From Escherichia coli (GTDB taxonomy: Bacteria > Pseudomonadota > Gammaproteobacteria > Enterobacterales > Enterobacteriaceae): DNA of 64,000 nucleotides. A program made the position numbers and the translations under genes. Of the stretch, positions 3,079 through 64,000 are shown piece by piece (within the stretch, counting starts at the first letter, position 1; the number at the start of each line of letters is the position of its first letter). The stretch lies in NCBI RefSeq assembly GCF_013122565.1, contig NZ_CP053258.1. One strand, given 5' to 3'. Below the pieces are notes generated by a model. The model saw only the letters and a list, made by a program, of their open reading frames with translations, was not told the DNA's origin and ran no database searches.

Positions 3079-3744
3079 TTAACGATTGTATTGCTGGTAT
3101 AGAATAGCAATATTTTGTTGCATAATTTCAGCAAGACAATGTCTGCATCCCTCTTTGTCTTTTGCTTTTAGCGCGGCGAGTAATAGATGATAGTTTTCTA
3201 TACGCTCCCGTAATTCCGCTGGATTAATCGCTTCATAGAGATAATGTAAACCAGGTCCCATCCTGACCCACAGTTGCTCAATCATCTCACACAGAATGGG
3301 CATATTTGAACGATGATAAATTGCTAAGCGAAATAGCCTGTTCGCATTAATGATTCGTTCCATGTCGCCCTTTTCTTGCGCCTGCTGTAATTTCTCAAGC
3401 AATTCCTGAAGTTCCTCCAGGTCTGGCGGGGTGAGGTTTTCAACAGCCAGAGTAACTGCCATTAATTCCAGTTCGTAGCGGATCCGATTGATTTCGTCTA
3501 ATTGACATTTCCCCACTTCCGGAACTGTAAATGCTTGCGCTGGTGCGACAGAAAGCGCATTCACCGAAACCAGACGTAATAATGCTTCACGCACAGGTGT
3601 AATACTCATACCTAATTGCTCCGCCAGATTTTTAGTAATCAGGCGTGCGCCAGGTTTTAGTGCGCCAATACTAAGCTGATGTTTCAGGTCGTTCTCAACC
3701 TGCAGAGTCAAACTGACATGTTTCATTTTTCCCGTTCCAGGCAT
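3079..3744 (-). CDS. mcbR: GntR/FadR-family transcriptional regulator McbR (YncC)
   Basis: ORF 3079..3801 trimmed to the internal MPGTGKMKH start to give the 221 aa I recall; N-terminal HTH, FadR-like C-terminus. Confidence 0.8.
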   Translation of the reverse strand: MPGTGKMKHVSLTLQVENDLKHQLSIGALKPGARLITKNLAEQLGMSITPVREALLRLVSVNALSVAPAQAFTVPEVGKCQLDEINRIRYELELMAVTLAVENLTPPDLEELQELLEKLQQAQEKGDMERIINANRLFRLAIYHRSNMPILCEMIEQLWVRMGPGLHYLYEAINPAELRERIENYHLLLAALKAKDKEGCRHCLAEIMQQNIAILYQQYNR

Positions 3745-3941
3745 TTTAATTCCTTCGCGTGTTTTCTGTCCAACCCTGCCTGCATGGCAGAAGGAGTTCA
3801 CCTGGTGTATTAAAGTGAATAATCATAAACCACTCACCTTTGTTGTTATTAGCAGCAGAACAATGACGTGGTTAGTTAATTAAAGCTGAAAATAAGCTTT
3901 TTGCCTGGATTTTTATGGCGGCTTACGCCGCCGTTGAAACT

Positions 3942-4979
3942 TTAATCATCACCCGCCACGCGGATCACCACTTTGCCGAAGTTTTTACCCTTCAGCAGGC
4001 CGATAAACGTCTGTGGCGCATTCTCTAAACCGTCAGTAATTTCTTCGCGGTAGTGGATTTTATCCTCTTTCACCCATTGCCCCATCTCCTTCTGAAACTC
4101 ATGGATGCGGTGACCATAATCCTGAGCAATAATAAACCCTTGCAAGCGAATACGTTTTTTCAGCACCGTAGCCATCAACAAAGGTAATCGATCCGGACCG
4201 GGTGGTAGCTCTGTAGCGTTATAGCTGCTCACTAAGCCGCAGACGGGAATGCGCGCAGATGTATTAAGTAACGGTAGCACCGCATCAAATACCTTACCGC
4301 CCACGTTTTCATAATAGATATCAATACCTTTTGGGCACGCTTTCGCCAGTTGATCGGCAAAATCATCCGCGTGGTGATCAAGACAAACATCGAAGCCCAG
4401 CACCTCGGTAGCATGGCGGCATTTTTCCGCGCCACCGGCAACCCCCACCACCCTGCAACCTTTAAGTTTGCCGATTTGCCCCACCGTTGCTCCCACAGGA
4501 CCTGTCGCCGCCGCAACCACCAGCGTTTCGCCCTCTTTAGGCTGACCGATATCCAGCAGGCCCATATAAGCGGTAAAGCCTGGCATCCCCAGCACACCTA
4601 GCGACCACGATGGATTTTGCGGATGATCGCCAAGTTTCACCAGTTCATCACCATTGGATATGTCATAGTCCTGCCATCCACTGTAGCCCAGCACCCAGTC
4701 GCCAGGCTGATAATCAGGATGATTCGACTCCACGACACGGCTCACCGTACCGCCGACCATCACGCCGCCAATATCAACCGGCGGTGAATAAGATGGCTCA
4801 TCGCTCATACGTCCACGCATATACGGGTCCAGTGACAAATAAACTGTGCGCAGTAACACCTGTCCTTCACCCGGTGTGGCGACATCATCTTCTTCAAGAC
4901 GGAAATTCTCCGGAACCGGCGCGCCATGCGGACGCGAGGCCAGAACCCAACGGCGGTTACGCTGCTTTTGTTGCCCCAT
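3942..4979 (-). CDS. curA: NADPH-dependent curcumin/dihydrocurcumin reductase (zinc-independent MDR family)
   Basis: ORF 3942..5072 trimmed to the MGQQKQRNRRWVLASRPHGAP start (345 aa); Rossmann motif AAATGPVGATVGQIGK. Confidence 0.85.
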   Translation of the reverse strand: MGQQKQRNRRWVLASRPHGAPVPENFRLEEDDVATPGEGQVLLRTVYLSLDPYMRGRMSDEPSYSPPVDIGGVMVGGTVSRVVESNHPDYQPGDWVLGYSGWQDYDISNGDELVKLGDHPQNPSWSLGVLGMPGFTAYMGLLDIGQPKEGETLVVAAATGPVGATVGQIGKLKGCRVVGVAGGAEKCRHATEVLGFDVCLDHHADDFADQLAKACPKGIDIYYENVGGKVFDAVLPLLNTSARIPVCGLVSSYNATELPPGPDRLPLLMATVLKKRIRLQGFIIAQDYGHRIHEFQKEMGQWVKEDKIHYREEITDGLENAPQTFIGLLKGKNFGKVVIRVAGDD

Positions 4980-5159
4980 AATGCTCTCCTGTGCTTTTGG
5001 CATGAATCCATCAATAGTAGCAGGCTCGCAGGATTGGTTTTGTTTGCAGCCGTCACATCCCCTCTGCAACACGCAATAATTTCATCGAGGAATCCGTTGC
5101 TTCGGGCTGTTTTCGATAGTATTGATAACATCATCATCATTATTTTATCGAGGCCAGAC

Positions 5160-5678
5160 ATGTCCATCCGTTTTGCCCGCAAAGCCGATTGCGCTGCTAT
5201 TGCGGAAATTTTTAACCACGCCGTGTTGTATACGGCGGCTATCTGGAATGACCAAACGGTGGATGCAGATAACCGCATTGCCTGGTTTGAAGCGCGGACC
5301 ATAGCAGGTTATCCGGTGCTGGTAAGTGAAGAAGATGGCGTAGTGACGGGATATGCCTCGTTTGGCGACTGGCGTAGTTTCGATGGTTTTCGCCATACCG
5401 TGGAACATTCGGTTTATGTCCATCCCGATCATCAGGGCAAAGGTCTGGGGCGTAAATTGTTAAGCCGATTGATTGATGAAGCGCGGGATTGCGGGAAGCA
5501 TGTCATGGTCGCCGGGATCGAATCGCAAAACCAGGCCTCGCTGCATCTGCACCAGTCGCTGGGATTTGTCATCACCGCACAAATGCCGCAGGTAGGCACT
5601 AAATTTGGTCGTTGGCTGGATCTGACATTTATGCAGTTGCAACTCGACGAACGCACTGAACCGGACGCGATTGGATGA
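5160..5678 (+). CDS. mnaT: GNAT family L-amino acid N-acyltransferase MnaT (YncA)
   Basis: Internal start MSIRFARKADCAAIAEIF within ORF 4926..5678 gives 172 aa; GNAT acetyl-CoA motif region QGKGLGRKLL; divergent from curA. Confidence 0.85.
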   Translation: MSIRFARKADCAAIAEIFNHAVLYTAAIWNDQTVDADNRIAWFEARTIAGYPVLVSEEDGVVTGYASFGDWRSFDGFRHTVEHSVYVHPDHQGKGLGRKLLSRLIDEARDCGKHVMVAGIESQNQASLHLHQSLGFVITAQMPQVGTKFGRWLDLTFMQLQLDERTEPDAIG

Positions 5679-29856: not shown

Positions 29857-30121
29857 CGACCAAAAACCTCTTTGCGTCACATTTTTACAACAATTATTGC
29901 AGAGAAGATTAATGCTATTGGAATGAAGAGAGTAACGAATGGCTAAACCGAATGACGAAAAATTCTGGAAAACAGCACGCAATTTCGTGAAGTGATTATT
30001 TTCGTCCCTAAGGAAACCTCATAGGATGCCTGCGGGTGCCTGAGACTTTCTGTTTTCAGGCTAACCGGGAATCAGAAAGACGAAGGCCCCGACCGATATT
30101 TCTATCAACCGAGGCCAACGA

Positions 30122-30329
<208 letters not shown>

Positions 30330-30574: not shown

Positions 30575-30745
30575 ATAACCTCCATGGTTTATCGAATCTT
30601 ATGTTCGATTTGAACGTTATACGCTGGTTTATTTTGATACCGTTGATGAGATCAAAGATCGGGTGAATTGATTAAAAATAAGGCAGATGGACGTATGGGC
30701 AAGGATTATGGTTTTATTTGTCATACAAATAAATATAATAGGCGC

Positions 30746-30809
30746 TTCCGATGTAGACCCGTATTCTTCGCCTGTACCACGGGTCGGTTTTAGTACAGGC
30801 GTTTTCTTT
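30746..30809 (+). ncRNA. rydC: RydC small RNA (Hfq-dependent pseudoknot sRNA)
   Basis: cttccgatgtagacccgtattcttcgcctgtaccacgggtcggttttagtacaggcgttttctt matches RydC as I recall it; TATAAT box about 8 nt upstream; ends in a hairpin (gcctgtac / gtacaggc) plus U-run. Confidence 0.65.
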
Positions 30810-30818
30810 AAATATCCT

Positions 30819-31349
30819 TCAGGAACGTTTACGCGGCATCATGCGTAGAAGTGTGTTGTCCTTCCAGAAATAGTGGTGTGCCAGTGCAGCCGCAGCGTGC
30901 AACCCGATGAGAAAATATCCCAGATTCGCCAGCGTCTCATGCCACGACTTTAAGCTATCAACCCGTTCGAAATTGGCCTCTGAAGCGTAAGGCATCGTCA
31001 AACCAAACGCAAACCACGGGTTGCCCCGGTTATACATCATCACCAAACCAATCACTGGCAGCGCAATAAACAGGAGATAAATCACCAAATGTCCCAAATG
31101 CGCCAGTCCCGTCATCATCGGTTTCGGCTTAGGTATAATCGGCGGGGTTGGGTATTTCAGTCTTAACAAAAGACGAACCACCATCAGCACGAGAATTGAG
31201 ATGCCACAGGAAACATGAATCATGTTGATGAGCGGCCGATCGCTACGTGGGAAGAAACCCCGAAACTCCATTGCGCAATACGCTGCGATAACCAGCAAAA
31301 AGACCAGCCAGTGAATGCTGATTTGTAACCTTGAGTATTTATTTTCCAT
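30819..31349 (-). CDS. cybB: Cytochrome b561
   Basis: ORF 30819..31385 trimmed to the MENKYSRLQISIHWLVFLL start (176 aa); four transmembrane helices with conserved histidines. Confidence 0.85.
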   Translation of the reverse strand: MENKYSRLQISIHWLVFLLVIAAYCAMEFRGFFPRSDRPLINMIHVSCGISILVLMVVRLLLRLKYPTPPIIPKPKPMMTGLAHLGHLVIYLLFIALPVIGLVMMYNRGNPWFAFGLTMPYASEANFERVDSLKSWHETLANLGYFLIGLHAAAALAHHYFWKDNTLLRMMPRKRS

Positions 31350-31537
31350 AACATTTCCTGCTTTAACATAATTTTCCGTTAACATAACGGGCTTTTCTCA
31401 AAATTTCATTAAATATTGTTCACCCGTTTTCAGTACGTTACGTTTCACTGTAAGAATGGAGATTGCCCATCCCACAATCCTGGGCTAAGCCTGGAAAGGA
31501 TCAATTTTCATCCGAACGTTCCTGACAGGAGAAAACC

Positions 31538-32539
31538 ATGAGTAAAGTTGGTATTAACGGTTTTGGTCGTATCGGTCGACTGGTGTTGCGTCGATTACTT
31601 GAAGTCAAAAGCAACATAGACGTTGTCGCTATTAATGATCTTACTTCCCCAAAAATTCTCGCCTATCTGCTGAAACATGATTCAAACTATGGTCCGTTCC
31701 CCTGGAGCGTTGATTTTACGGAAGATTCACTTATCGTTGATGGGAAAAGTATCGCGGTTTACGCCGAAAAAGAGGCTAAAAATATTCCGTGGAAAGCGAA
31801 AGGTGCAGAAATCATTGTCGAATGTACTGGCTTTTATACCTCCGCCGATAAATCGCAGGCGCATCTTGATGCTGGTGCGAAGAAGGTGTTGATTTCCGCT
31901 CCTGCCGGTGAAATGAAAACCATCGTTTATAACGTTAATGACGACACTCTGGATGGCAACGATACCATTGTTTCCGTGGCGTCATGCACCACTAACTGCC
32001 TTGCGCCGATGGCCAAAGCCTTGCATGACAGTTTCGGGATAGAAGTCGGCACGATGACGACCATTCATGCCTATACTGGCACCCAGTCACTGGTGGATGG
32101 CCCGCGTGGTAAAGATTTACGTGCTTCACGCGCCGCGGCAGAAAATATCATTCCCCACACTACGGGGGCGGCAAAAGCCATTGGTCTGGTGATCCCGGAA
32201 CTGAGCGGCAAACTGAAAGGTCATGCGCAACGCGTGCCGGTGAAAACAGGTTCGGTCACTGAACTGGTATCGATTCTCGGAAAAAAAGTGACTGCCGAAG
32301 AGGTGAATAACGCACTTAAACAAGCAACCACCAATAACGAGTCATTTGGTTATACCGATGAAGAAATAGTCTCTTCCGATATCATTGGCAGCCATTTCGG
32401 TTCGGTGTTTGATGCCACGCAAACGGAAATTACCGCCGTGGGCGATTTACAACTGGTGAAAACGGTCGCCTGGTACGATAACGAATATGGCTTCGTCACG
32501 CAGCTTATTCGCACCCTCGAAAAATTCGCTAAACTCTGA
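31538..32539 (+). CDS. gapC: Glyceraldehyde-3-phosphate dehydrogenase GapC, intact 333-aa reading frame
   Basis: Uninterrupted ORF with the NAD-binding N-terminus ([10 protein letters not shown]) and catalytic motif SCTTNCLAP. Confidence 0.85.
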
Positions 32540-32580
32540 CGCGCACAGGCGGAGGAAAAAACCTCCGCCTCTTTCACTCA

Positions 32581-34020
32581 TCAAGACTGTAAATAAACCA
32601 CCTGGGTCTGCAGATATTCATGCAGGCCATGTTTACCATCTGCGCCGCCAATACCGGATTTACGCCATCCGGCGTGGAAGCCTTGCATAGCTTCGAAGTT
32701 TTCACGGTTGATGTAAGTTTCACCAAACTTCAGCCCTTTAATGGCTTTCATCGCGACGTTCAGATTTTGGGTATAGATTGATGAGGTCAGGCCGTAATCA
32801 CTGTCATTAGCCATTGAGATAGCATCTTCCAGCGTGTCAAATGCGACAACTGGCAGCACCGGGCCAAAGGTTTCCTCATGCATAATCGACATTTCCTGGC
32901 GAACATCCAGCAGCAATGTCGGCGGATAATAATATCCTTTCCCCTCTACCGCTTTGCCACCCAACGCCACTCTCGCCCCTTCTTCTACTGCGCGCGCCAC
33001 TTTTTGCTCGACCCTTTCCAGCGCCGCGGCGTTAATCAACGGCCCCATCGCAATGTCGTTGCGTTCAGCGGGGTTACCAAATTGAACCGCCTGCATCGCT
33101 TCACCCAGCCGATTGACGAACTGATCATAAATGCCTTTCTGTACATAAACACGTTCTGCACAGTTACACACTTGCCCACTATTAATGACGCGTGAATCAA
33201 CGATGGCTTTGACTGCCAGTTCAAGATCGGCATCGTCCATTACGATAGCTGGTGCTTTACCACCCAATTCCAGACACACTTTAGTGATGTTTTTCGCCGC
33301 AGTCGCCATGATCTTCTCACCTGCAGAGACGCTGCCTGTCATACTGACCATTGCGACCTTTGGGTTACCCGCCAGTTCTTGCCCAACGGTTTCACCACGC
33401 CCCAGAACAAGGTTAAACACGCCGCGCGGAAGGCCTATTTCATCGACGATTTTGGCGAATGCAATCGCATTGTTTGGCGTAAATTCACTGGGTTTAATGA
33501 CGATGGTATTACCGGTCAAAAGAGCGGGAGCCATTTTGCGGGCAATGAGGAAGAACGGGAAGTTCCACGGCAGAATGCCGGTAGTCACGCCAAGTGCACG
33601 TTTAAACAGAAGAATATTTTCTCCTGGACGATCGCTTTGAATAATCTCGCCCTCGTAACGCCGTGCCCACTCCGCCATGTAATCGATATAGTCCGCAGTA
33701 AAAGCCACTTCGACTTCAGCCAGCTGCTGGATCTTGCCCCCTTCTTCAACAATCAGCGCACTGATTTCACTGGCGCGTTCGCGGATCCCGGCGGAGATTT
33801 TGCGCAACCAACTGGCGCGTTCAATGGCAGGCAACGCTTCCCATTCTGGTTGTGCACGTTCTGCTGCATCGATTGCCTTACGGGCATCCTCGGCCTGACC
33901 ATCGGGAATGCGGGAAATGACAGCCTCTGTAGCAGGGTTTACCACATCAATCCATGCGTCTCCACGCCAGGTAACAAACTGTCCATCAATATACATAGGA
34001 TGTTGAACGGGTACTGACAT
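32581..34020 (-). CDS. aldA: Lactaldehyde dehydrogenase (NAD-dependent aldehyde dehydrogenase A)
   Basis: 479-aa ORF with aldehyde dehydrogenase motifs (LELGGKAP, catalytic-Cys region GQVCNCAERVYV). Confidence 0.9.
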   Translation of the reverse strand: MSVPVQHPMYIDGQFVTWRGDAWIDVVNPATEAVISRIPDGQAEDARKAIDAAERAQPEWEALPAIERASWLRKISAGIRERASEISALIVEEGGKIQQLAEVEVAFTADYIDYMAEWARRYEGEIIQSDRPGENILLFKRALGVTTGILPWNFPFFLIARKMAPALLTGNTIVIKPSEFTPNNAIAFAKIVDEIGLPRGVFNLVLGRGETVGQELAGNPKVAMVSMTGSVSAGEKIMATAAKNITKVCLELGGKAPAIVMDDADLELAVKAIVDSRVINSGQVCNCAERVYVQKGIYDQFVNRLGEAMQAVQFGNPAERNDIAMGPLINAAALERVEQKVARAVEEGARVALGGKAVEGKGYYYPPTLLLDVRQEMSIMHEETFGPVLPVVAFDTLEDAISMANDSDYGLTSSIYTQNLNVAMKAIKGLKFGETYINRENFEAMQGFHAGWRKSGIGGADGKHGLHEYLQTQVVYLQS

Positions 34021-48237: not shown

Positions 48238-51200
48238 TTAGAACGTTTTCTTGAAGTTCAGCATCACGCCTTTGTCGCTGATGCCGTCCTCTTTCCAGTT
48301 GTACGCATCCAGGTTCAGTGAGCTTTCTTTGCTGCTGTACTTCACGCCGACGCTTGCCAGGCTGTTGATGCCGCCACCCTTCTGACCGTCATCGACGTTA
48401 AAGTGCTGACTGCCTGCGCCTGCCAGGCTTGCCGTGCGCTGGCTCTTCGCGTAGCTCAGATTCGGCCCGCCTTCCAGCGTGGCGCTAGCGCTCCAGCCGT
48501 CTTTACCTGCGTAATCCAGTTTCAACCCGACGATGCTGTCCACCGCCGTTTCGCTGCCACTGTTCATATTCAGGTTAAAGTCTCCGGCATTGCGCTCCTG
48601 ATAGCCACCTTCCAGTGTGTGACGCAGTTTAACACCCGCATATGGCGTAACCTTCAGTCCTTCGCTCGGTTCGAAAGTCTTCGCCCCTTCGCTGCGGAAC
48701 TCCAGGTACTGCTGCTTCACGTCGGTATCAGCCGTTTTGTTTGTGTTGCTAAATGCAATCGAACGGCTGCTGTCAAGGTTGTGAACGTCATAACGCAATG
48801 CGTTATTCCAGTTCATGCCGTTGTCGAAGGACATCTGATGTTTCAGGCCAAAGAACTGGCTGTAGCCGCCGGTTACGCCGTTGTCGCCCGCTTTCTGCGC
48901 ACCATCGCCATCCAGACGCGCAATACCGTATTCCAGGCTCATGCTCTGGCTTTCGCTCAGGTCGATGGTTTTACGCAATGCCAGCATGTCGTACTCGGTA
49001 TTATTACCTAACTCGGCACGCGGATCGCCTTTCGCCACCACGTTGAACGCCAGACCATTGCCCACTTTCGGCGCGGCATCCGCCAGCATACTAAAGCGGT
49101 TGCTTAACACGCGCGCTTCACGGAACACCGTGGTCGCCAGGCTACCGCTGACCTGTTTCAGGGCGCTGTTCAGTTCGGCGGTGGTGCCAACGTTCAGGCT
49201 GGTATACAGCTCGTTGTTGGTGTAACCCGCATCCAGTGCCTTCGCGACGTCATTTACCGAAGCATCGGTTGCGACATCGGTGTAGGCATTTTTGCTCATG
49301 GTAACGTCAACGTTACCGTTGGCATCGGTGCTGCCTTTGGCGTTCCATACGACCGTAGAGGAAACGATGTTGTCCACACCGCTGATGTTTTCGCCTTTGA
49401 ATACATCGTTAACGACAACGGTGGTATCCGCTGTTCCTGCACTAAACCCGGCATTAACACTCACGTTGTCGCCAATCACCAGGTTATTCGCGCTGAGCGT
49501 ACCGGAACTCCCGTCGCTATTGGTACCGATGGTATAGTTGCTCAGCAGTTGCGGCGCATTTGAATCAGCAGGCGGGGTTGGAACATCACCTTGTGACGGC
49601 GTAGTTGATGCGTCTGGTACGGTGATATCCACAGTACCGTTGTGGTCGTTTTGTGTACCCGTTGTTCCAGGAGCATAAATATCGCATCCGGTATCACACA
49701 GCAGGTTAATTTCACCGTTGTTAATGATGGCTTTCGTTTGCCCACCAAACGCCCAGGAATTATCGGCATAGACATTAATCACACCCGTTTGCGTGTTATT
49801 AATTGTTGTTTCCCGACCATTGCCTTTAATACCAATTAAACCTTCGCCATTGGTTCCATCCTGTTGCCCCTGCTCAGTACCCACATTAATGGTGCCACTG
49901 TTCACCAACTGAACAACATAACTGGTTGTGCCGCCACTGATGCCCACCGCATTATCGCCCTGAACATTAATAACGCCAGCGTTAGCAAAGTTATAACCTC
50001 GTCCTAAATCAACCAACGGAGCCGCAGGGTTAATACCATTGATTACCCCTGTTTCTGTGTTCCAGATCCATTTACCTTTACTGTTCGAGCCAGTACTTTC
50101 GGTTTTGATCGCGCTGTAGCCATTTGTAGCCGTAATGGTTCCACGGTTAACCTGAGATACAGAATCCCCGGTTCTGGTTACATGAATAATCGCGTTTTCA
50201 CCGCCCGTTACCGCATTACCACTATTCGTCAGGGTCGCACCCGCTTCGTTGAAGAACAGGAAACTCCCGTTGATGAGTGATTGCCCATCTTCGGTCACCG
50301 TCATTTCACCGGTATTCACTACGTTCTGTTGATAGCTGTTGCCGGTAATTGAACCGCTGAACTCACCTTCGTTAAAGAAGGAAACCGCACCATTCAACGT
50401 AAGGAGATCTGTTGTCATGCTCCCGGTTTCACGGTTATAGATCGTGGTTTTGCTGTTAATACTGTCAACATCCAGGGTCCCACTATTCTCCAACCCTTGA
50501 GTGACACTCAGTTCGCCATTGATGGTCAGACTGGCATCAGGTTGGTTATATAACCAGCCGTTTGCATCAACATTGCCATTAAGCGTTTCATCTCCGTAGT
50601 TTGCCAGGTTATTAACAACGACAAAACCGTCGGTAGTTGTGGTTTTGCTGATGCTCTCCCCGCTACCAGACAACTCGCTAAGAACATCTTTGTCATCCGG
50701 CGTCACCCCCATATGGGAATCACTTTCATCCATTGGATTACCGAAAAGAGTAATTTTTCCGTAGTTGAGAATGGTACCGGTGCTATCTTTATAAAACGCC
50801 TGACCAATATCAGTATTAATATTAATCACACCATCCTGGTCATTAATGGCCAGACCACCTTGAATTGCCCCCATCGCGAACAACTGGTTATCTTGCTGCT
50901 TCGTCACACCCTCATCGGCGGTGAGATTGATCGTTCCCTGGTTGACAACGGTCCCGCCGCTCATCGCCAGCATACCAAAACCTTCGTTATTAACATTGAT
51001 GGTTCCGGTATTTAACCCACTGGCATCGCCATTTCCGATATCGGTTGACCCTACAACAACGCCACCGGACATAAGATAAGGATGGGGTGGTTGCCAGTAG
51101 GATTTACTAATGATATTGCCATCTTCATCAAGTTCGGGAACAAAACCATCGACATTGATTTCCCCGGCATTTGTCGCCGTGCCTTTAGATGCTGCAGCAG

Positions 51201-54200
51201 CATAGTTTCCCGCGCCTTGCAAATTAATGGTGGCGTCAGATTCATTCACTGTGATGCCGTAATCACTGGCCCACAGCCCGTAGTTGACACCGAAATACCA
51301 TTTCAGGGGGGATTCAGACATCCCGCCTGCGTATGCAGGTGTCGTTACAGAGATCAGATTAATAACCCCACCCGACGCATTCGTAACCTGAGAATTCTGG
51401 CCACGAGCACGCATTGTCCCCCCCCTGGAGAATTCCTCACCGCTAGGTTTGACATTAATAATTCCACTATTAGTGATATGTGCACCATTGTTAGCCGTCA
51501 TTAAATCCTGGCTATCCATTGTGTTAATCACACCTTTGTTTTCAACGCTGGACTGACTGCCAATAGCAGAAATAAGCGCACGTTCAAAGAAGAAAAAGTC
51601 GGTTTCCCTGGCTTTACTGGATATATCCGTTACAGCGTTTTCATCAAATATAACTTTTCCACCGTCCGCCACCGAGACCAACGTAAAGGCACCCAATTCC
51701 TGACGGGTATCCATTGTCGAATGACCACTAATGTTAACGGTATTGTCACCAATAACCGATACGCCATCTATAACATGTGCGGCGCTATCACCACTAATAT
51801 TAATACCGCCATCAATATTAACGGTATTCTTCTCGCCAGAAACAATTATGCCACTCACTAAATTTTCCTGGTGTAGCAGCTCCCCTTGTACGGTGATATC
51901 AACATGGCCACTAATATCTACAGTGTTATTTTTACCACTAATCGTTCCACCTGTTAATGCTGTGATTTGTGCATCAGGGTTATCGCCGAGGATGGAATTA
52001 ACATTGATGCTTCCGTCAACGCTAATATGGCTGTCATTACCCGTCAGACTGAAACCTGTAGCACCCGGCGCATTGCCCTCGCTGTCTGGTTGCTGGAATA
52101 CGTTAATATCGCCGCTTAATTGAACCTGTTCACGGTCACCCGCAATGGATACCCCAGTTCCGTACCGTGAAACATCAATTTCGCCCACGTTACCGAAAAC
52201 TTCATCATCACCATCAATCAGAATCCCCACAGAACCGGAATCCGTGACAACAATTTTGCCTTTATTACTTAACTGCGAGTTATTACCGGCAATATCAATA
52301 CCCGTTGCCCCTCCGCTGACGTAGAGGTCACCTTCCTGGCTAATTGTTGCATTGTGACCGGCAACTTTTGTCCCTACTGCATTCGCACCGTCAACCGTCA
52401 TATCCCCGGCGATATTCATCTCATTGCCATCGCCAGTGATGGTTATACCTGTGGCATTTTCACCCAAAATATTAAGATCATAGGTTGCCAGGGTTATACT
52501 ATTGTTGTCGCCGATAATCTCCATGCCAGTCGTATCGTCTTTAACCAGCATTGAGCCAGCAAGAGAAATACTGCTGCTGTCCCCGGTGATTTTTACACCA
52601 GTACCGCTATTTGTTGTGGTGATGTCTCCCACATTGACAAAGGTAGTATTATCACCATTGATTAACACGCCGTAGGGGTTTCCGTCACTGTCCGCCTGAC
52701 CTACATTGATATCACCAATGTTCATAAAGGTTGTTTGATCGCCATCCAGCAATACACCGATGGAAGTATCATCCACCACAGTAACATTACCCTTATTACT
52801 GACGAGAGTACCTTTACCCTCGGCGTCAATACCGTGTGCGCCACCGCTGACGTATAAATCACCCTGTTGCCTTACAATGGCATCTTCGCCGATAATTTTT
52901 GATCCCGTTGAATTTGCACCATCGACGGTCATGTCGCCTTTGATTTCAATGCGGGCATCATCCCCTGTAATCACACTCCCCGTGCCACCATTCGTGATTT
53001 CGACATCACCAACGGTGTTCAACGTAGTACGATCGCCATTGACAATAACGGCCGTACCACCATCGACATCTGTCTCACCATTATTAGTAATGGTGATATC
53101 GTCACCGGTAAGAATACCTACCACCGAACCTTCACCAATCGCGGTAGTTTGACCGTCGTTGTTCAGGGTGATGTCGTTACCGTCAACGTTTATCACAACG
53201 CCGCCATTCAGCGCGATGTTGCCGCCATGGTCGGTAATAGTGGCATCGTTAATATGGAAATGTTCGCCAGTTGTACCGTCTGCGGTGGTGAGTGACTCTA
53301 TGATTATTTCGATTTTTCCCGCTTCGTCATAGCGCCAGGTGGAGGTTCCGCTCGGATTGACGCCATTGAACGAAGCAGTGTTAGCCGCCTCGTCGACTAA
53401 CCAATCCTTTACGATTGTGGTAGTGCCGCCAGGTCCGGTAAGCGTATAGCTGCCATCGTCATTTTTGGTGTAGGTAAAGGTGGTATCACGTAATTTTAGG
53501 GTCTTCGCGTCCTGATCCCAGGTGACATCGTTTTTATAGACCACTGGATCGTGTTTAACTGGCGTGTCATCGCCACCGTCATCCGGGGTGTCATCGCCGC
53601 CATCATCTGGCGGGACGGGGGTGTCGCCGCCATCATCCGGCGGGACTGGTGTGTCGCCGCCATCATCCGGCGGGACTGGTGTATCACCGCCATCATCCGG
53701 CGGGACTGGTGTGTCGCCGCCATCATCCGGCGGGACTGGTGTGTCACCGCCATCATCCGGCGGGACAGGTGTATCACTGCCATCGTCTGGCGGGACTGGC
53801 GTGTCGCCGCCATCATCCGGCGGGATGGGTGTATCACCGCCATCATCCGGCGGGACGGGTGTATCACCGCCATCATCCGGCGGGACTGGCGTGTCGCCGC
53901 CATCATCCGGCGGGACGGGTGTATCACCACCATCATCCGGCGGGACTGGCGTGTCGCCGCCATCATCCGGCACCGGAGACGAATCGTCATGATGATTATT
54001 ATTATCGTGGAGTGCATATACTGCGACACCTGTGACTGCCGCTGCCAGCCCCACTGCAGCCCAGGGTAATAACTCATTATCTTCAACTGATTTACACTCT
54101 GCCGGCAGCTTTTCTAGCTGTTCTTTACTTAGTGATTTAATATTGGCCGGGCAGCTAATCTTGCTGGATTTACGAGATTCATCCGATGTTTCCGCTATCG

Positions 54201-54273
54201 ACGTATCTGCCGCCCATGTCTGGCTGCTTAACGCCATTGCAACACAGACACTGAGCAATTTTTTCCTTTGCAT
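48238..54273 (-). CDS. ydbA: YdbA, giant type Va autotransporter (AIDA-like), intact 2011-aa reading frame
   Basis: Single 6036-nt ORF: signal peptide, Pro/Asp/Gly decapeptide repeat stalk, very long Gly/Thr/Asn-rich beta-helical passenger with pervasive internal repeats, and a C-terminal beta-barrel translocator ending MLNFKKTF. Confidence 0.9.
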   Translation of the reverse strand: MQRKKLLSVCVAMALSSQTWAADTSIAETSDESRKSSKISCPANIKSLSKEQLEKLPAECKSVEDNELLPWAAVGLAAAVTGVAVYALHDNNNHHDDSSPVPDDGGDTPVPPDDGGDTPVPPDDGGDTPVPPDDGGDTPVPPDDGGDTPIPPDDGGDTPVPPDDGSDTPVPPDDGGDTPVPPDDGGDTPVPPDDGGDTPVPPDDGGDTPVPPDDGGDTPVPPDDGGDDTPDDGGDDTPVKHDPVVYKNDVTWDQDAKTLKLRDTTFTYTKNDDGSYTLTGPGGTTTIVKDWLVDEAANTASFNGVNPSGTSTWRYDEAGKIEIIIESLTTADGTTGEHFHINDATITDHGGNIALNGGVVINVDGNDITLNNDGQTTAIGEGSVVGILTGDDITITNNGETDVDGGTAVIVNGDRTTLNTVGDVEITNGGTGSVITGDDARIEIKGDMTVDGANSTGSKIIGEDAIVRQQGDLYVSGGAHGIDAEGKGTLVSNKGNVTVVDDTSIGVLLDGDQTTFMNIGDINVGQADSDGNPYGVLINGDNTTFVNVGDITTTNSGTGVKITGDSSSISLAGSMLVKDDTTGMEIIGDNNSITLATYDLNILGENATGITITGDGNEMNIAGDMTVDGANAVGTKVAGHNATISQEGDLYVSGGATGIDIAGNNSQLSNKGKIVVTDSGSVGILIDGDDEVFGNVGEIDVSRYGTGVSIAGDREQVQLSGDINVFQQPDSEGNAPGATGFSLTGNDSHISVDGSINVNSILGDNPDAQITALTGGTISGKNNTVDISGHVDITVQGELLHQENLVSGIIVSGEKNTVNIDGGINISGDSAAHVIDGVSVIGDNTVNISGHSTMDTRQELGAFTLVSVADGGKVIFDENAVTDISSKARETDFFFFERALISAIGSQSSVENKGVINTMDSQDLMTANNGAHITNSGIINVKPSGEEFSRGGTMRARGQNSQVTNASGGVINLISVTTPAYAGGMSESPLKWYFGVNYGLWASDYGITVNESDATINLQGAGNYAAAASKGTATNAGEINVDGFVPELDEDGNIISKSYWQPPHPYLMSGGVVVGSTDIGNGDASGLNTGTINVNNEGFGMLAMSGGTVVNQGTINLTADEGVTKQQDNQLFAMGAIQGGLAINDQDGVININTDIGQAFYKDSTGTILNYGKITLFGNPMDESDSHMGVTPDDKDVLSELSGSGESISKTTTTDGFVVVNNLANYGDETLNGNVDANGWLYNQPDASLTINGELSVTQGLENSGTLDVDSINSKTTIYNRETGSMTTDLLTLNGAVSFFNEGEFSGSITGNSYQQNVVNTGEMTVTEDGQSLINGSFLFFNEAGATLTNSGNAVTGGENAIIHVTRTGDSVSQVNRGTITATNGYSAIKTESTGSNSKGKWIWNTETGVINGINPAAPLVDLGRGYNFANAGVINVQGDNAVGISGGTTSYVVQLVNSGTINVGTEQGQQDGTNGEGLIGIKGNGRETTINNTQTGVINVYADNSWAFGGQTKAIINNGEINLLCDTGCDIYAPGTTGTQNDHNGTVDITVPDASTTPSQGDVPTPPADSNAPQLLSNYTIGTNSDGSSGTLSANNLVIGDNVSVNAGFSAGTADTTVVVNDVFKGENISGVDNIVSSTVVWNAKGSTDANGNVDVTMSKNAYTDVATDASVNDVAKALDAGYTNNELYTSLNVGTTAELNSALKQVSGSLATTVFREARVLSNRFSMLADAAPKVGNGLAFNVVAKGDPRAELGNNTEYDMLALRKTIDLSESQSMSLEYGIARLDGDGAQKAGDNGVTGGYSQFFGLKHQMSFDNGMNWNNALRYDVHNLDSSRSIAFSNTNKTADTDVKQQYLEFRSEGAKTFEPSEGLKVTPYAGVKLRHTLEGGYQERNAGDFNLNMNSGSETAVDSIVGLKLDYAGKDGWSASATLEGGPNLSYAKSQRTASLAGAGSQHFNVDDGQKGGGINSLASVGVKYSSKESSLNLDAYNWKEDGISDKGVMLNFKKTF
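53565..53975 (-). repeat. About 13 to 14 near-identical 30-bp tandem repeats inside ydbA, encoding PVPPDDGGDT units
   Basis: Directly visible periodicity: (ggtgtcgccgccatcatccggcgggactgg)n with only a few substitutions; in-frame units (PVPPDDGGDT, PIPPDDGGDT, PVPPDDGSDT) at about residues 100 to 240. Confidence 0.9.
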
Positions 54274-54674
54274 ATGAAATTCCTCATAAATAGATGCTTA
54301 CGCAGCCCAGATAAACTGCACAGGGTTAAATAGTTAAAAATATTCGAAATCTGGATATTGTTTTTAACAGAATAAATATATTGATTTAGTGAATGTATTT
54401 ATTCATTAAGTCAATATATCTTTTCTTTAATTTATATTTTTAACGCATTTATTTCAACTTAAAATATGGCGTAATTGAGATTAAATCCGATAACACCGAT
54501 GAATTAAATAATGCAATTAATTCATGAAATAAATAAATTATCATGTGAATGAAGCATTCATCATCGGCATCTATATGAAATTAAATGAAAAATAATTCTC
54601 TATAGCATTGCAGTTAATATTGAATATTTCAGGAGGTACAACCAGGCAGATTTTTCTCGACGAATACCGACTTA

Positions 54675-55001
54675 TTATTTTTGCAACCACATTCCGTTTA
54701 TCCCGCGAATGTATTCTCCCGGCTTAGCTTTTGCTACCAGTTTCTGCCCCGCCAATTTTTCCACTTCCGCAACCGGCAGATTATTTTTCATGGCGAGTTG
54801 TTGATAGCTCTTATTACGCGATTCATTAATCCTTTTGACTAACATCTGTGTTTCGGTATCCGCCTTTAATGCAACCAGATAACCATTATACGTTTCGCCA
54901 ACACGCCCCTGAGTTCGAGCGTCATCCAGCGTCAGAGCCATCGCACTGGTGCTAAATAAGGCATTAATGACAAAACACAGTATTAAACTTCTCTTCATCA
55001 T
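54675..55001 (-). CDS. ydbL: Periplasmic protein YdbL (DUF1318)
   Basis: ORF 54675..55079 trimmed to the MMKRSLILCFVINALFSTSAMA start (108 aa) with a signal peptide; third gene of ydbH-ynbE-ydbL. Confidence 0.8.
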   Translation of the reverse strand: MMKRSLILCFVINALFSTSAMALTLDDARTQGRVGETYNGYLVALKADTETQMLVKRINESRNKSYQQLAMKNNLPVAEVEKLAGQKLVAKAKPGEYIRGINGMWLQK

Positions 55002-55005
55002 CGCC

Positions 55006-55191
55006 TCAGAAAAGATCGCTACGAGTTTCAAGCAGCTCTTCGACATCTTTGTCTGCCTTGATGATGATCTCATGCTCAATTTTAACGTTCATATTGATAG
55101 TGATCGGTTCCTTAGGTGCAGCGACTTCAATGCGAGGCGTACAGCCAACCAGCATAAAAGATGACGTCAACGCAGCCAGTAAAATTTTCAT
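55006..55191 (-). CDS. ynbE: Small lipoprotein YnbE (61 aa)
   Basis: MKILLAALTSSFMLVGCTPRIEV... with a lipobox (LVGC); its start overlaps the ydbH stop by 4 nt. Confidence 0.8.
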   Translation of the reverse strand: MKILLAALTSSFMLVGCTPRIEVAAPKEPITINMNVKIEHEIIIKADKDVEELLETRSDLF

Positions 55192-57827
55192 TGTTTTTCC
55201 TCACACTCTTTTCCTTGCGGACAGTCATTTCCCGGCAGACGTGCGTTCTGCTCCAACCATGCCTGGAGATTATCGCCAAAGCGTAAACTGCGCCACAGCG
55301 TAAAAATATTCTCTTCATGATGGTAATTAAGGTTTACCGTACCGCTTTTACCATCAACGCGACTGGTACCTGTAATGTTGGCCTGCATGGTTAATAAACC
55401 GAGATTATCTAAATTAATATTTGTCGATGAACGGCTAATTTCCATATAGCGCAACCAGTTAATTGCTGAACCCGCAGTCATATTGTCTTTCACCACCGCA
55501 TCTGCGGTGTCTTTATCCAGCCGCAAGGTCATTGGCCCGCTATTTGCCAGCCAACCATCTTTCACAATCCATTTTTCGTTGTTTAGCCATAACGGCAATG
55601 CACCACTAAATGCCCCGGACATGGCGAATTGTTTCGGATTGATGGCGCTAACCAGTTCGCTGGATGAGAGATTATTCAGCCGCAACAGCGCCGGGTCATG
55701 TTGCGGCATACGTAATTGTTTCATCAGCACGTTACCGCCTAACACATCGACGCTAACATCAGTCAACAGCAATGGTTCTTCTTCTGTCCACGGATAGCGC
55801 CCTTGCAAATCAGCCGTAATATTTTTCGCTGTCACCAGATTAATCACTTCGGCAATTCGCAACGTAACGGGGCCGCGAGTCCCCAGATGCCAGGCTCCAT
55901 CGGCAAAACGGAAAGGCAGGACAAAATCGACACCGTTAACCTGATTATCTGGCATCCAGGCACTACCGCCTTTCAACACGCCGTGCCCTCCCGCGCGGAA
56001 TCCTTGTTCAGGCGCAGCAGAAAATGCAACCTGAGCATACAGTTCACCATCGCGTAAGTTCATCTTCCAGTCGGGTGGCACCAGCGGCTGGAATACAGTC
56101 AGTGATTGTTTAGGCCACCAGGCGTTACCGCGCAGACGAATACCGTCCCAGCGACCATTTACCCGAACCGGGCCAATCTCACCAGCATGTAAATCGCCTT
56201 TAAAGAGGAAATAGGTAGGATCGCGCCCATCGACACTAAATTTTAAGGTTGATGGCGGTAACAGACTGCCGCCAGTGAACAGCGTTTGCCCGGCGTCCAG
56301 TGACAGCGCGCCGCTGAAGGAGGGATGCTGTGCGTCACGTACCCAGACGACGGGCTTGTCGAGAATTAGTCGCGGCTTTTCTACCGTCATCGTACCGTAT
56401 TGTAACTGGTCGAAACCGGTGGAGAGATCGGTCAGCGTAATCGTGCTGTCATGCCACTCACCTTTTCCTGCGACATCCCAGGTGGCATTCATCGGTGTAA
56501 AACTGCCTTTTCCCCAGTAGCGCCACTGCCAGCGGCCAGCGTCAGGGAGAAAATCATTCGCCAGCCCATCCATATGCAGCACGAAATCGCCCAGTTCATT
56601 TTCATGCGCCTGCAAGATGGCCTGCAAACGTCCGTCAACACCACGTTGGGTGACTTTTACACCCGCTAAAGGCCAGCGGATTTCATCGATGTCCAGCGAA
56701 TCGATGACTCTTCCCTTCGAACGTAATAACGCGCCTGGCTCAAAGGCTAACGTTGGGTCAGTCAGACTTCCACTTAGCTGCGCGGGTAAGCGGGCATATA
56801 AAATGAGGTCCGCCTGTTTCGCTTCACCGGTCAGCTGCAGAGGCAGCTGACTGTTATCCATGCTTAATTTTCCTGGGCCAAAATTAAGCACCGCGTTGCC
56901 CTTACCCGCTTGCCCCTGGGTCAGCACACTCAGTCGTCCGCTGACCACTGCGTTCTCGATACCTGCCTGCCAGTTGTCGACTTTGACACCCAGTCGTCCA
57001 CTCAAAGGAAAACCTACATACGGCCAGCTCCAGCGACCATCGCTTACCGTCAATTGTTGACGAGTAATTTGCCACGGCAAATCGAGCAACGGATCGCCGT
57101 TATCCCGTGCCAGCACAATCAATTGCCCGCTATTTTCCTGCCAGTCCAGCTCGGCATCCACCAGTGACGGTTCCTGCGGCAAGTTTAACGTCGCAGTAGC
57201 ATGCCCACTTACAGGAAGTCCATCCGGCACTAGCGGCATAGTAAATTCCCCCACCAGTTTTACCGGCGGCTGATTTTCAAACGCGGCGACATCCAGTTCG
57301 CTGACTGTAAGTTGTTGCCCTTTCAACTGGCCTTGAAATTTAACTTTTTCGCCCTGATAACGCAGTTGCTGGATATCAGAGGTTAATGCGAGAGAGAGTT
57401 TTCCCTGCCATTCCTGCCAAGGAGAAAAAATCAGTTTATCGATATTGATCCAGGTGTTAGGCAGCATGGACTGCCACTGCGCGAGGGTTTTTGGAGCGGC
57501 TGGCGATTGCTCCGTCTGCGGCAATTTCGCCAGACAAGCAGAATCAAGTTCTACCGTGCCGACGTTCAATAACCAGCGGCTGGGATGTGAAAGGCTGGCG
57601 TTGGTGATATGCGCAAGCTGACAATCTCCCACCAGATAACGGAGATCGGGAATGATTAAACCTTTACGCGTAATGCGTGGGCTTTCATCTAATGCAATAC
57701 GTGTCCCGAGCGGTAGCCAGATGCCCGCCAGCGTGGGAACCCACAGCCCGAGCGTCATCAGCAGCGTCAACGGCACAAGAATAATCAGTAATAACAGCGC
57801 GAGAACGGCTTTATATTTACCCAGCAT
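55188..57827 (-). CDS. ydbH: AsmA-like large envelope protein YdbH
   Basis: 879-aa ORF with an N-terminal membrane anchor (MLGKYKAVLALLLLIILVPLTLLMTLGLWV) followed by a long predicted periplasmic domain. Confidence 0.85.
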   Translation of the reverse strand: MLGKYKAVLALLLLIILVPLTLLMTLGLWVPTLAGIWLPLGTRIALDESPRITRKGLIIPDLRYLVGDCQLAHITNASLSHPSRWLLNVGTVELDSACLAKLPQTEQSPAAPKTLAQWQSMLPNTWINIDKLIFSPWQEWQGKLSLALTSDIQQLRYQGEKVKFQGQLKGQQLTVSELDVAAFENQPPVKLVGEFTMPLVPDGLPVSGHATATLNLPQEPSLVDAELDWQENSGQLIVLARDNGDPLLDLPWQITRQQLTVSDGRWSWPYVGFPLSGRLGVKVDNWQAGIENAVVSGRLSVLTQGQAGKGNAVLNFGPGKLSMDNSQLPLQLTGEAKQADLILYARLPAQLSGSLTDPTLAFEPGALLRSKGRVIDSLDIDEIRWPLAGVKVTQRGVDGRLQAILQAHENELGDFVLHMDGLANDFLPDAGRWQWRYWGKGSFTPMNATWDVAGKGEWHDSTITLTDLSTGFDQLQYGTMTVEKPRLILDKPVVWVRDAQHPSFSGALSLDAGQTLFTGGSLLPPSTLKFSVDGRDPTYFLFKGDLHAGEIGPVRVNGRWDGIRLRGNAWWPKQSLTVFQPLVPPDWKMNLRDGELYAQVAFSAAPEQGFRAGGHGVLKGGSAWMPDNQVNGVDFVLPFRFADGAWHLGTRGPVTLRIAEVINLVTAKNITADLQGRYPWTEEEPLLLTDVSVDVLGGNVLMKQLRMPQHDPALLRLNNLSSSELVSAINPKQFAMSGAFSGALPLWLNNEKWIVKDGWLANSGPMTLRLDKDTADAVVKDNMTAGSAINWLRYMEISRSSTNINLDNLGLLTMQANITGTSRVDGKSGTVNLNYHHEENIFTLWRSLRFGDNLQAWLEQNARLPGNDCPQGKECEEKQ

Positions 57828-58034
57828 GGGTAGTTAATATCCTGATTTAGCGAAAAATTAAGCATTCAATACGGGTATTGTGGCATGTTTAACCGTTCAG
57901 TTGAAGGTTGCGCCTACACTAAGCATAGTTGTTGATGAATTTTTCAATATCACCATGACTTTCAATTATATTTGAAATTTTGTAAAATATTTTTAGTAGC
58001 TTAAATGTGATTCAACATCACTGGAGAAAGTCTT

Positions 58035-59024
58035 ATGAAACTCGCCGTTTATAGCACAAAACAGTACGACAAGAAGTACCTGCAACAGGTGAACGAGTCC
58101 TTTGGCTTTGAGCTGGAATTTTTTGACTTTCTGCTGACGGAAAAAACCGCTAAAACTGCCAATGGCTGCGAAGCGGTATGTATTTTCGTAAACGATGACG
58201 GCAGCCGCCCGGTGCTGGAAGAGCTGAAAAAGCACGGCGTTAAATATATCGCCCTGCGCTGTGCCGGTTTCAATAACGTCGACCTTGACGCGGCAAAAGA
58301 ACTGGGGCTGAAAGTAGTCCGTGTTCCAGCCTATGATCCAGAAGCCGTTGCTGAACACGCCATCGGTATGATGATGACGCTGAACCGCCGTATTCACCGC
58401 GCGTATCAGCGTACCCGTGACGCTAACTTCTCTCTGGAAGGTCTGACCGGCTTTACTATGTATGGCAAAACGGCAGGCGTTATCGGTACCGGTAAAATCG
58501 GTGTGGCGATGCTGCGCATTCTGAAAGGTTTTGGTATGCGTCTGCTGGCGTTCGATCCGTATCCAAGTGCGGCGGCGCTGGAACTCGGTGTGGAGTATGT
58601 CGATCTGCCAACCCTGTTCTCTGAATCAGACGTTATCTCTCTGCACTGCCCACTGACACCGGAAAACTACCATCTGTTGAACGAAGCCGCCTTCGATCAG
58701 ATGAAAAATGGTGTGATGATCGTCAATACCAGTCGCGGTGCATTGATTGATTCTCAGGCGGCAATTGAAGCGCTGAAAAATCAGAAAATTGGTTCGTTGG
58801 GTATGGACGTGTATGAGAACGAACGCGATCTGTTCTTTGAAGATAAATCCAACGACGTAATTCAGGATGACGTATTCCGTCGCCTGTCTGCCTGCCACAA
58901 CGTGCTGTTTACCGGGCACCAGGCATTCCTGACAGCAGAAGCTCTGACCAGTATTTCTCAGACTACGCTGCAAAACTTAAGCAATCTGGAAAAAGGCGAA
59001 ACCTGCCCGAACGAACTGGTTTAA
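58035..59024 (+). CDS. ldhA: Fermentative D-lactate dehydrogenase (D-2-hydroxyacid dehydrogenase family)
   Basis: 329-aa ORF with the NAD-binding GXGXXG motif (GVIGTGKIGVA); divergent from ydbH. Confidence 0.9.
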   Translation: MKLAVYSTKQYDKKYLQQVNESFGFELEFFDFLLTEKTAKTANGCEAVCIFVNDDGSRPVLEELKKHGVKYIALRCAGFNNVDLDAAKELGLKVVRVPAYDPEAVAEHAIGMMMTLNRRIHRAYQRTRDANFSLEGLTGFTMYGKTAGVIGTGKIGVAMLRILKGFGMRLLAFDPYPSAAALELGVEYVDLPTLFSESDVISLHCPLTPENYHLLNEAAFDQMKNGVMIVNTSRGALIDSQAAIEALKNQKIGSLGMDVYENERDLFFEDKSNDVIQDDVFRRLSACHNVLFTGHQAFLTAEALTSISQTTLQNLSNLEKGETCPNELV

Positions 59025-59134
59025 TCTTGCCGCTCCCCTGCATTCCAGGGGAGCTTATTCAGATAATCCCCAAAGACCTTTCATCCTCTATTCTTAAAAT
59101 AGCCCTGAGTCAGAAACTGTAATTGAGAACCACA

Positions 59135-59557
59135 ATGAAGAAAGTAGCCGCGCTTGTTGCGCTCAGCCTGCTGATGGCGGGATGTGTAAGTAATGACAAA
59201 ATTGCTGTAACGCCAGAACAGTTACAGCATCATCGTTTTGTGCTGGAAAGCGTAAACGGTAAGCCCGTGACCAGCGATAAAAATCCGCCAGAAATCAGCT
59301 TTGGTGAAAAAATGATGATTTCCGGCAGCATGTGTAACCGCTTTAGCGGTGAAGGCAAACTGTCTAATGGTGAACTGACCGCCAAAGGGCTGGCCATGAC
59401 CCGTATGATGTGCGCTAACCCGCAGCTTAATGAACTCGATAACACCATTAGCGAAATGCTGAAAGAAGGTGCACAAGTGGATCTGACCGCGAACCAGTTA
59501 ACGCTGGCAACCGCGAAACAGACATTAACTTATAAGCTAGCGGATTTAATGAATTAA
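59135..59557 (+). CDS. hslJ: Heat-shock lipoprotein HslJ
   Basis: Internal start MKKVAALVALSLLMAGCVSN within ORF 59123..59557 (140 aa) with a lipobox (LMAGC). Confidence 0.85.
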   Translation: MKKVAALVALSLLMAGCVSNDKIAVTPEQLQHHRFVLESVNGKPVTSDKNPPEISFGEKMMISGSMCNRFSGEGKLSNGELTAKGLAMTRMMCANPQLNELDNTISEMLKEGAQVDLTANQLTLATAKQTLTYKLADLMN

Positions 59558-59820
59558 TAGCTGCCACAGCTTCCGGCGGCAAGTGACTGTTCGCTACAGC
59601 GTTTGCCGTTGGGTAATGCACACATCCCAATCGCCGTACCATCCAGTTGACGGGCAACAGAAAGCGAACCGCCGATCATTGCACAATTTGCTTCTCCACT
59701 ACTGGACATCGACGCTTTTAAACCTGGCGCTACGTGCGCCGCAGTCGCCTGCTGAACAGGTTCACTACTACACGCCGACAACAATAAAGCGGCACCCCCT
59801 ACCCAAAACGCTGCTCGCAT
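59554..59820 (-). CDS. ydbJ: Small lipoprotein YdbJ (DUF333)
   Basis: 88-aa ORF with a lipobox (LLLSACSSE); its stop overlaps the convergent hslJ stop. Confidence 0.75.
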   Translation of the reverse strand: MRAAFWVGGAALLLSACSSEPVQQATAAHVAPGLKASMSSSGEANCAMIGGSLSVARQLDGTAIGMCALPNGKRCSEQSLAAGSCGSY

Positions 59821-60093
59821 CTTTTCTTCCTCTGATCTTCAAGCCAAACGACACCGCCATAAATAATAGGCAGCACAGAGGGCGACGTCGAGAGCTGTCC
59901 TGCGCGTTGCCCCGCATTTTTACTTTTTTATGGCTATTTTTTTGCCCTCTGTTTGATCAAAACATTCATTACGCTGATGTGGGGGACACAAAAGCGAAAA
60001 TGCAGAAGAAAGCCATTTGCTAAAATTGAAAGATTACTACTGGGCGCGCAGCAATTTCGTGCGCCCCTCATTTGCGCAATGTAAGGGTGTCAT

Positions 60094-63618: not shown

Positions 63619-63646
63619 ATGCACTGGATAAGGATTATCCAATTCT

Positions 63647-63684
63647 AAAAAAAAGCCCGGACGACTGTTCGGGCTTGTCTTTTT
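63647..63684. terminator. Bidirectional Rho-independent terminator shared by pfo and micC
   Basis: GC-rich hairpin (gcccg ... cgggc, 63654..63676) flanked by A8 upstream and gtcttttt downstream, so a U-run follows on either strand. Confidence 0.7.
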
Positions 63685-63756
63685 ATATGTTAGAAAATCA
63701 GTGGCAATGCAATGGCCCAACAGAAAATAAAATCTGTGACAATAAAGGCATATAAC
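63648..63756 (-). ncRNA. micC: MicC small RNA (Hfq-dependent repressor of ompC/ompD)
   Basis: Reverse complement reads gttatatgcctttattgtcacagattttattttctgttgggccattgcattgccactgatttt...aagcccgaacagtcgtccgggctttttttt, matching MicC as I recall it; divergent from ompN. Confidence 0.7.
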
Positions 63757-63983
63757 CCGCGCAGAATAACGTATAGCAAATTAAAAGTATAATTTTTATT
63801 TTGTATGTATTATCTTCGATACATTCACCAGACTTATTATCATTTCAGAAGAATTATTTGATTAAGGTTTTACTTAAGGCGTAACAAATGATATTTATCG
63901 GCTAACTGAACTTCTCCTTTAGGATGTTTTCACTCCCCGAAATGGGGATAAAAGGCAAATAAAATAACTAAAGGATTTATTCA

Positions 63984-64000
63984 ATGAAAAGCAAAGTACT
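63984..64000 (+). CDS. ompN: Outer membrane porin OmpN, first 5 to 6 codons only (window ends)
   Basis: ATGAAAAGCAAAGTACT encodes MKSKV, the typical porin signal-peptide start, preceded by an aaggat Shine-Dalgarno; the call rests mostly on synteny. Confidence 0.45.

Follow-up and report, generated by a model that had tools for sequence, protein, structure and literature searches.

We found that gapC is intact in the Escherichia coli genome analysed here. In the stretch of 64,000 nucleotides that we examined (the window), the gene occupies a single, unbroken reading frame at 31538–32539 on the + strand, with an ATG start, 333 codons and a TGA stop, as seen in both the list of open reading frames and the raw sequence. 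We estimate a probability of about 0.9 that this is an ordinary functional allele that provides a second chromosomal GAPDH gene; in this reading the activity is that of a near-identical protein, and we infer the expression and role of the gene in this strain. An intact gapC is already known, from literature that dates back to 1996–1998, and purification, assays and crystal structures of the enzyme have been published. In PMC10614358, which cites UniProt P58072 (O157:H7 GapC) and Hidalgo (1996), gapC serves as a qPCR marker of E. coli as a species.

The gene lies between cybB (cytochrome b561/superoxide oxidase; 30819–31349) and aldA (aldehyde dehydrogenase A; 32581–34020), which were identified from their open reading frames and annotated relatives. 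Both neighbours are on the − strand, in agreement with the preliminary description, which had gapC diverging from cybB and converging with aldA. A Shine–Dalgarno sequence, AGGAG (31527–31531, + strand), was read off 6 nt 5′ of the gapC ATG. The divergent intergenic region between cybB and gapC (31350–31537), the presumed promoter region, differs from that of K-12 at 5 of 188 nt. A σ70 consensus scan of this region gave no convincing site. The sole match on the + strand (31343–31372) overlaps the start of cybB and, at one match found against a shuffle mean of 2.3, is no better than shuffled sequence; we therefore assigned no promoter to gapC. A σS ChIP-seq peak is reported in the K-12 gapC/cybB intergenic region (PMC4447067). 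At the other end, the 41-nt spacer between gapC and aldA folds into a G+C-rich hairpin with a 9-bp stem (32547–32570; −18.3 kcal/mol, z = −4.5), a stability equalled by none of 200 shuffles. As judged from its fold and position, this hairpin is a probable shared (bidirectional) terminator; a simple terminator scan passed it over on account of its weak T-tail.

Several further features of this region were recorded. The longest cybB frame (30819–31385, − strand) starts at an ATG at 31385 and would encode 188 amino acids; all annotated relatives start at 31349 (176 amino acids, 531 bp). Rfam matches at gathering score were obtained for the sok antitoxin RNA (30034–30185, + strand), which adjoins hokB, for the RydC small RNA (30745–30808, + strand), directly downstream of cybB, and, far from gapC, for the MicC small RNA (63639–63759, − strand). 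All three RNAs are expected E. coli features.

The encoded protein is a type I GAPDH by profile. GapC scored 446.4 bits against the type I GAPDH equivalog NCBIfam TIGR01534 (cut-off 367.2), with residues 3–325 aligned to positions 1–330 of the 330 in the profile, and it contains both Pfam domains of the family, Gp_dh_N (PF00044; residues 3–102, E = 7e-36) and Gp_dh_C (PF02800; residues 155–313, E = 7e-58), each far above its gathering score. These matches place the family assignment far beyond chance and correspond to the two-domain architecture of the type I enzymes, an N-terminal NAD-binding Rossmann domain followed by a C-terminal catalytic domain. The N-terminal motif INGFGRIGR (residues 6–14; 31553–31579, + strand) contains the GxGxxG signature together with Arg11 and Ile12, which are among the NAD ligands given in PMC8615399. 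The codon for the catalytic Cys150 (TGC; 31985–31987, + strand) lies in the SCTTNCLAP motif stretch (residues 148–157), and that for the catalytic His177 (CAT) lies at 32066–32068 on the same strand. We found all of the catalytic residues (S149, C150, T151 and H177), all of the NAD residues (Arg11, Ile12, Asp34, Lys78, Ser120 and Asn315) and all of the phosphate-site residues (Thr180, Thr182, Arg232 and Thr209), so that 14 of the 14 residues named in PMC8615399 for catalysis and for the NAD, Ps and ‘new Pi’ sites are kept. The preliminary description had proposed an intact 333-residue GAPDH that retains its NAD-binding N terminus and catalytic cysteine motif; these data bear it out, and no active-site residue is lost.

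The product of this gene has been characterised biochemically. The window protein is identical at 332 of 333 residues to the chains of PDB entries 7C5F, 7C5H, 7C5P and 7C7K, with D104E as the sole difference. These entries, together with the corresponding mutant entries and UniProt P58072 (O157:H7), represent the E. coli GapC known as EcGAPDH1. They derive from the same gene as window gapC, which occupies the same genomic position in O157:H7, CFT073 and B strains; the allele that was crystallised is that of the B strains. EcGAPDH1 shares the catalytic, NAD-, Ps- and ‘new Pi’-site residues of the window protein and differs from it only in having Glu104 in place of Asp104. Codon 104 (31847–31849, + strand) is GAT (Asp) in the window and in the baboon isolate PapM-32-1, and encodes Glu in all other alleles examined, including those of PDB 7C5F and K-12. 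The change is conservative.

According to PMC8615399, purified EcGAPDH1 is a tetramer that uses NAD+ to oxidise G3P, for which its Km is 0.73 mM. The assays were done at pH 10 and 50 °C and say little about physiological contribution. In the same paper, the C150A mutation abolished activity, C150S and H177A lowered it approximately 10^4-fold (approximately 8,000-fold for H177A), and the solved structures show NAD, phosphate and G3P as well as the thioacyl intermediate. By analogy, the D104 allele would be expected to catalyse the reaction published for the 332/333-identical protein, in which G3P is oxidised to 1,3-bisphosphoglycerate with NAD+ and phosphate. GapC would thus be a phosphorylating, NAD-dependent type I GAPDH that acts as a homotetramer, in which Cys150 would attack G3P to form a thioacyl intermediate with His177 as the base, hydride would pass to NAD+, and phosphate would then release 1,3-bisphosphoglycerate. 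The gene would be translated from its own ribosome-binding site and would share its hairpin terminator with aldA. Its expression, which published work describes as dependent on conditions (fresh water, σS), may be so in this strain as well, and GapC would then serve as an accessory isozyme beside the near-invariant housekeeping gapA.

Considering that the preliminary description had contrasted the gene with a split K-12 gapC pseudogene, we aligned the window gene with its K-12 counterpart. The orthologue in MG1655 is indeed a pseudogene (b4493, 1,001 bp, formerly gapC_1/gapC_2), and the copy in JM109, identical to b4493, is annotated ‘frameshifted; internal stop’. Orthology is indicated by position, divergent from cybB and convergent with aldA, and by high nucleotide identity to b4493. 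The alignment has 17 differences over 1,002 positions (approximately 98.3% identity) and revealed two lesions in K-12. Codon 39 (31652–31654, + strand), which is AAA (Lys) here, is a TAA stop (K39*) in K-12, and a run of seven A residues across codons 248–250 (A7; 32281–32287, + strand) is shortened to six (A6) in K-12, a −1 frameshift. In addition, codon 18 (31589–31591, + strand) is CGT (Arg) here and GGT (Gly; R18G) in K-12 and in all of the K-12-type pseudogene alleles that we sampled. The window and K-12 genes differ by four amino acids, the fourth at residue 104, where K-12 has Glu. The K-12 gene therefore carries K39*, A7>A6 and R18G, none of which is present in the window, in an otherwise shared setting: the same neighbours flank gapC in MG1655, JM109, PapM-32-1, O157:H7 and CFT073, and the order trg–hokB–ydcA–cybB–gapC–aldA–ydcF is common to K-12 and PapM-32-1.

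To place both alleles in the species, we searched 5,426 complete E. coli genomes. A 1,201-bp query comprising gapC and its flanks found the locus in 5,417 of them, nearly always once per chromosome, and large deletions were rare, with at least 80% of the query covered in 5,408 of the 5,417. The best match was PapM-32-1 (99.9%); the K-12 derivative JM109 was 98.2% identical, and overall the window gapC was 95–99% identical in 5,270 genomes and 90–95% identical in 106. The K-12 frameshift haplotype (A6, 40-mer) was present in 1,049 of the 5,426 genomes. The nonsense haplotype (TAA, 30-mer) was matched exactly in 1,153, a count that covers the K-12 haplotype only. This 30-mer matched a further class of 3,235 genomes with one mismatch, which pools AAA-plus-C and TAA-plus-T haplotypes and of which the sole genome sampled (NEBExpress) has AAA at codon 39, and 1,026 genomes with two mismatches, the class to which the window's own AAA/T haplotype would belong. 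A 41-nt query for the A7 allele, searched by short-word blastn, matched 5,266 genomes, 1,565 of them exactly; the exact count is a lower bound, the surroundings of the A-run being more polymorphic than expected. A reasonable estimate from these counts is that intact gapC is the usual state, present in about four in five E. coli, and that the broken K-12 form is a minority (approximately 20%).

The genomes that we sampled without the K-12 lesions agreed with this estimate. All 11 annotate an intact 1,002-bp gapC (333 amino acids), and five were confirmed by translation. They are PapM-32-1, O157:H7 ECP19-598, CFT073, NEBExpress (a B-strain derivative), the river isolate KFu014, an ExPEC from a mussel, an O111:H8 strain, the poultry strain E4, AR_0104, the meningitis strain MCJCHV-1 and the bloodstream isolate GN06156; most were taken at even spacing from the ranking of the locus search, and CFT073 and NEBExpress were chosen from the allele-specific rankings. 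Several loci had peculiarities of their own. In O111:H8 1056-1, the adjoining aldA is annotated as frameshifted (1282–1401 of the extracted locus) and gapC is intact. In NEBExpress_Iq, an IS1A lies in the cybB–gapC intergenic region, approximately 170 bp upstream of the start of the intact gapC (229–926 of the extracted locus), and could alter gapC expression there. In the raw-milk strain SCPM-O-B-7615, an IS1A has taken the place of the 3′ part of gapC together with the 3′ end of aldA (3139–5316 of the extracted locus); such an IS1-mediated deletion is an independent route to gapC loss. Of 5,435 gapC matches, five are in records that carry a plasmid label; these could be mis-assigned replicons or plasmid-borne chromosomal segments.

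We also compared the window with PapM-32-1 beyond the gapC locus. The two are collinear only as far as 48244, at 98.55% identity. Past this point PapM-32-1 has paaY–paaA, paaZ and tynA, and the window has a large autotransporter gene, ydbH, ldhA, ydbK and MicC (48244–64000); the window strain appears to be without the phenylacetate (paa) and tynA block. The autotransporter frame (48238–54273, − strand; 2,011 amino acids) is unbroken and scored 2,053 bits against the BigA autotransporter-adhesin model, below the cut-off of 3,400. At this position K-12 has ydbA, presumably a pseudogene disrupted by an insertion sequence. If so, the frame would be the second case, after gapC, of a gene that is unbroken in the window and a pseudogene in K-12.

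Three other explanations for the intact frame were weighed, of which two concern its identity and its accuracy. GapC might be an enzyme of GAPDH fold with another job, either Epd-like, or coupled to ArsJ in arsenate detoxification, or dependent on NADP. Epd (GapB, the erythrose-4-phosphate dehydrogenase of E. coli) does share the two-domain GAPDH fold and the cysteine-based chemistry with GapC, and the matches to its models and to that of the ArsJ-associated GAPDH are significant in themselves. They nevertheless fall far below the curated cut-offs, at 279 bits for the Epd model NF010058 (cut-off 539), 276 bits for TIGR01532 (cut-off 530.55) and 306 bits for the ArsJ-associated model NF033735 (cut-off 450), so that GapC is not a member of Epd; all scores against other NCBIfam GAPDH sub-models were likewise below their cut-offs, and only the type I equivalog exceeded its own. 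We found no arsJ adjoining gapC, its neighbours being cybB and aldA. The aspartate that corresponds to Asp34 in this enzyme favours NAD over NADP in GAPDHs. Asp34 is kept in GapC and is listed as an NAD+ ligand of EcGAPDH1 in PMC8615399, and the near-identical protein, as described above, oxidises G3P with NAD+ and has crystal structures in which NAD, G3P and the thioacyl intermediate are present. Another job for GapC is thus very unlikely. Alternatively, the integrity of the frame could be an artefact of sequencing or assembly, such as a miscounted homopolymer that masks a frameshift; the A7/A6 site is a homopolymer and a classic site of error. The K-12 nonsense codon, however, is also absent from the window, and its site is one of substitution. 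Moreover, a further 16 positions distinguish the window haplotype from that of K-12, the independent complete genome of PapM-32-1 has the identical protein (WP_000048653.1) from a gene that differs by 1 nt, and the exact protein occurs on at least 1,000 contigs in a public protein collection. We regard such an artefact as exceedingly improbable.

It is also conceivable that the frame is intact and the gene is a silent relic, unexpressed or useless and not yet mutated, on the same path as K-12. The loss of gapC by point lesions in approximately 20% of genomes, the occasional IS1-mediated deletions, the lack of a clear promoter in the consensus scan and the tolerance of an IS1 just upstream of gapC in B-strain derivatives would all fit this explanation. 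Against it, the five intact alleles (that of the window and four others) gave dN/dS values of 0.012–0.056 in 10 of 10 pairwise comparisons, with dS of up to 0.15 and dN of no more than 0.005. Such low values across deep E. coli lineages argue for long-term purifying selection on the GapC protein. The gene is also intact in 11 of the 11 sampled genomes, which cover varied pathotypes and sources, and its expression has been reported. PMC6333774 describes a gapC transcript that was detected, and was CsrA-dependent, in EPEC; PMC2949598 and PMC1796617 cite Espinosa-Urgel & Kolter (1998) for the finding that environmental isolates have an intact gapC, expressed preferentially in fresh water. On this evidence a silent relic is unlikely, and a functional allele remains our preferred reading.

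A functional GapC would act beside GapA. The preliminary description had suggested a second GAPDH besides gapA as a possibility. gapA itself falls outside the 64-kb window, and we therefore turned to the species: gapA (b1779) was found in 5,425 of the 5,426 complete genomes, at no less than 99% identity to the K-12 gene in 5,424. This near-invariant presence indicates that gapC is an additional gene and not a replacement, and makes it very probable that a strain with intact gapC has two GAPDH genes, which strengthens the earlier suggestion. GapA, the housekeeping glycolytic GAPDH, has the same family, fold, chemistry and SCTTNCLAP motif as GapC, yet the two are only 46% identical. Solved GAPDHs of other organisms score 410–482 bits against GapC, compared with 278 bits for GapA by blastp, although these scores come from different programs. 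Synonymous diversity at gapC is much above that at gapA, which is consistent with a weakly expressed gapC beside a highly expressed paralogue. Unlike near-invariant gapA, gapC is done without by approximately 20% of the species, so that some niches, at least, do not require it. gapC has been called ‘laterally acquired’ (PMC1796617). We saw no sign of a recent horizontal acquisition: the G+C content of the gene is 47.8%, compared with 49.6% for the window, and the gene is near-universal in the species.

Finally, we asked where the K-12 lesions arose. The literature that cites Espinosa-Urgel & Kolter (1998) attributes them to laboratory strains. Among 30 evenly spaced carriers of the A6 allele, however, approximately half came from people, dogs, pigs, cattle, a lake or sediment. 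Both lesions are present in canine 1283, duck SF10 and PJ-T13, natural isolates whose gapC alleles match that of K-12 exactly, and in the sediment isolate ET82, whose allele differs from it at two positions. That wild isolates share them indicates that both lesions arose before K-12 was isolated. A strain with only part of this set was found in ES4, from frog-farm sediment, which has R18G and K39* yet retains A7 and the full 1,002 bp (1096–2097 of the extracted locus). The 3′ half of the ES4 gene has variants of the B allele that are absent from K-12, a pattern suggestive of the ancestral state or of recombination within the gene. The nonsense haplotype also exceeds the frameshift haplotype by about 100 genomes (1,153 compared with 1,049). 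Together, the ES4 intermediate and the larger number of nonsense haplotypes imply that R18G and K39* preceded the A7>A6 frameshift. These data indicate that gapC decayed in two steps, R18G/K39* and then A7>A6, to give the K-12 pseudogene, a natural allele carried by a minority of strains, and that this decay happened in nature and not by laboratory passage. It is possible, although doubtful, that GapC is a niche-specific isozyme (σS-dependent, and suited to fresh water, to low temperature or to stationary phase) and that the K-12-like lineage lost it in the course of ecological specialisation rather than through laboratory domestication.

K-12 is thus an atypical reference for gapC, a point of little consequence outside correct annotation. 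Two GAPDH genes are the rule in E. coli, including O157:H7, the B2 uropathogens and B strains of the BL21 type, and this bears on metabolic models, on the design of gapA knock-outs and on flux engineering in hosts other than K-12. The presence of the K-12 lesions in approximately 1,050–1,150 complete genomes, many of them of animal, human or sediment origin, together with the nonsense-only intermediate ES4, corrects the usual account of these mutations as ‘accumulated’ by laboratory strains, and a modest addition of this work is that the K-12 gapC pseudogene represents a natural two-step polymorphism of a lineage, present in roughly one in five sequenced E. coli genomes.
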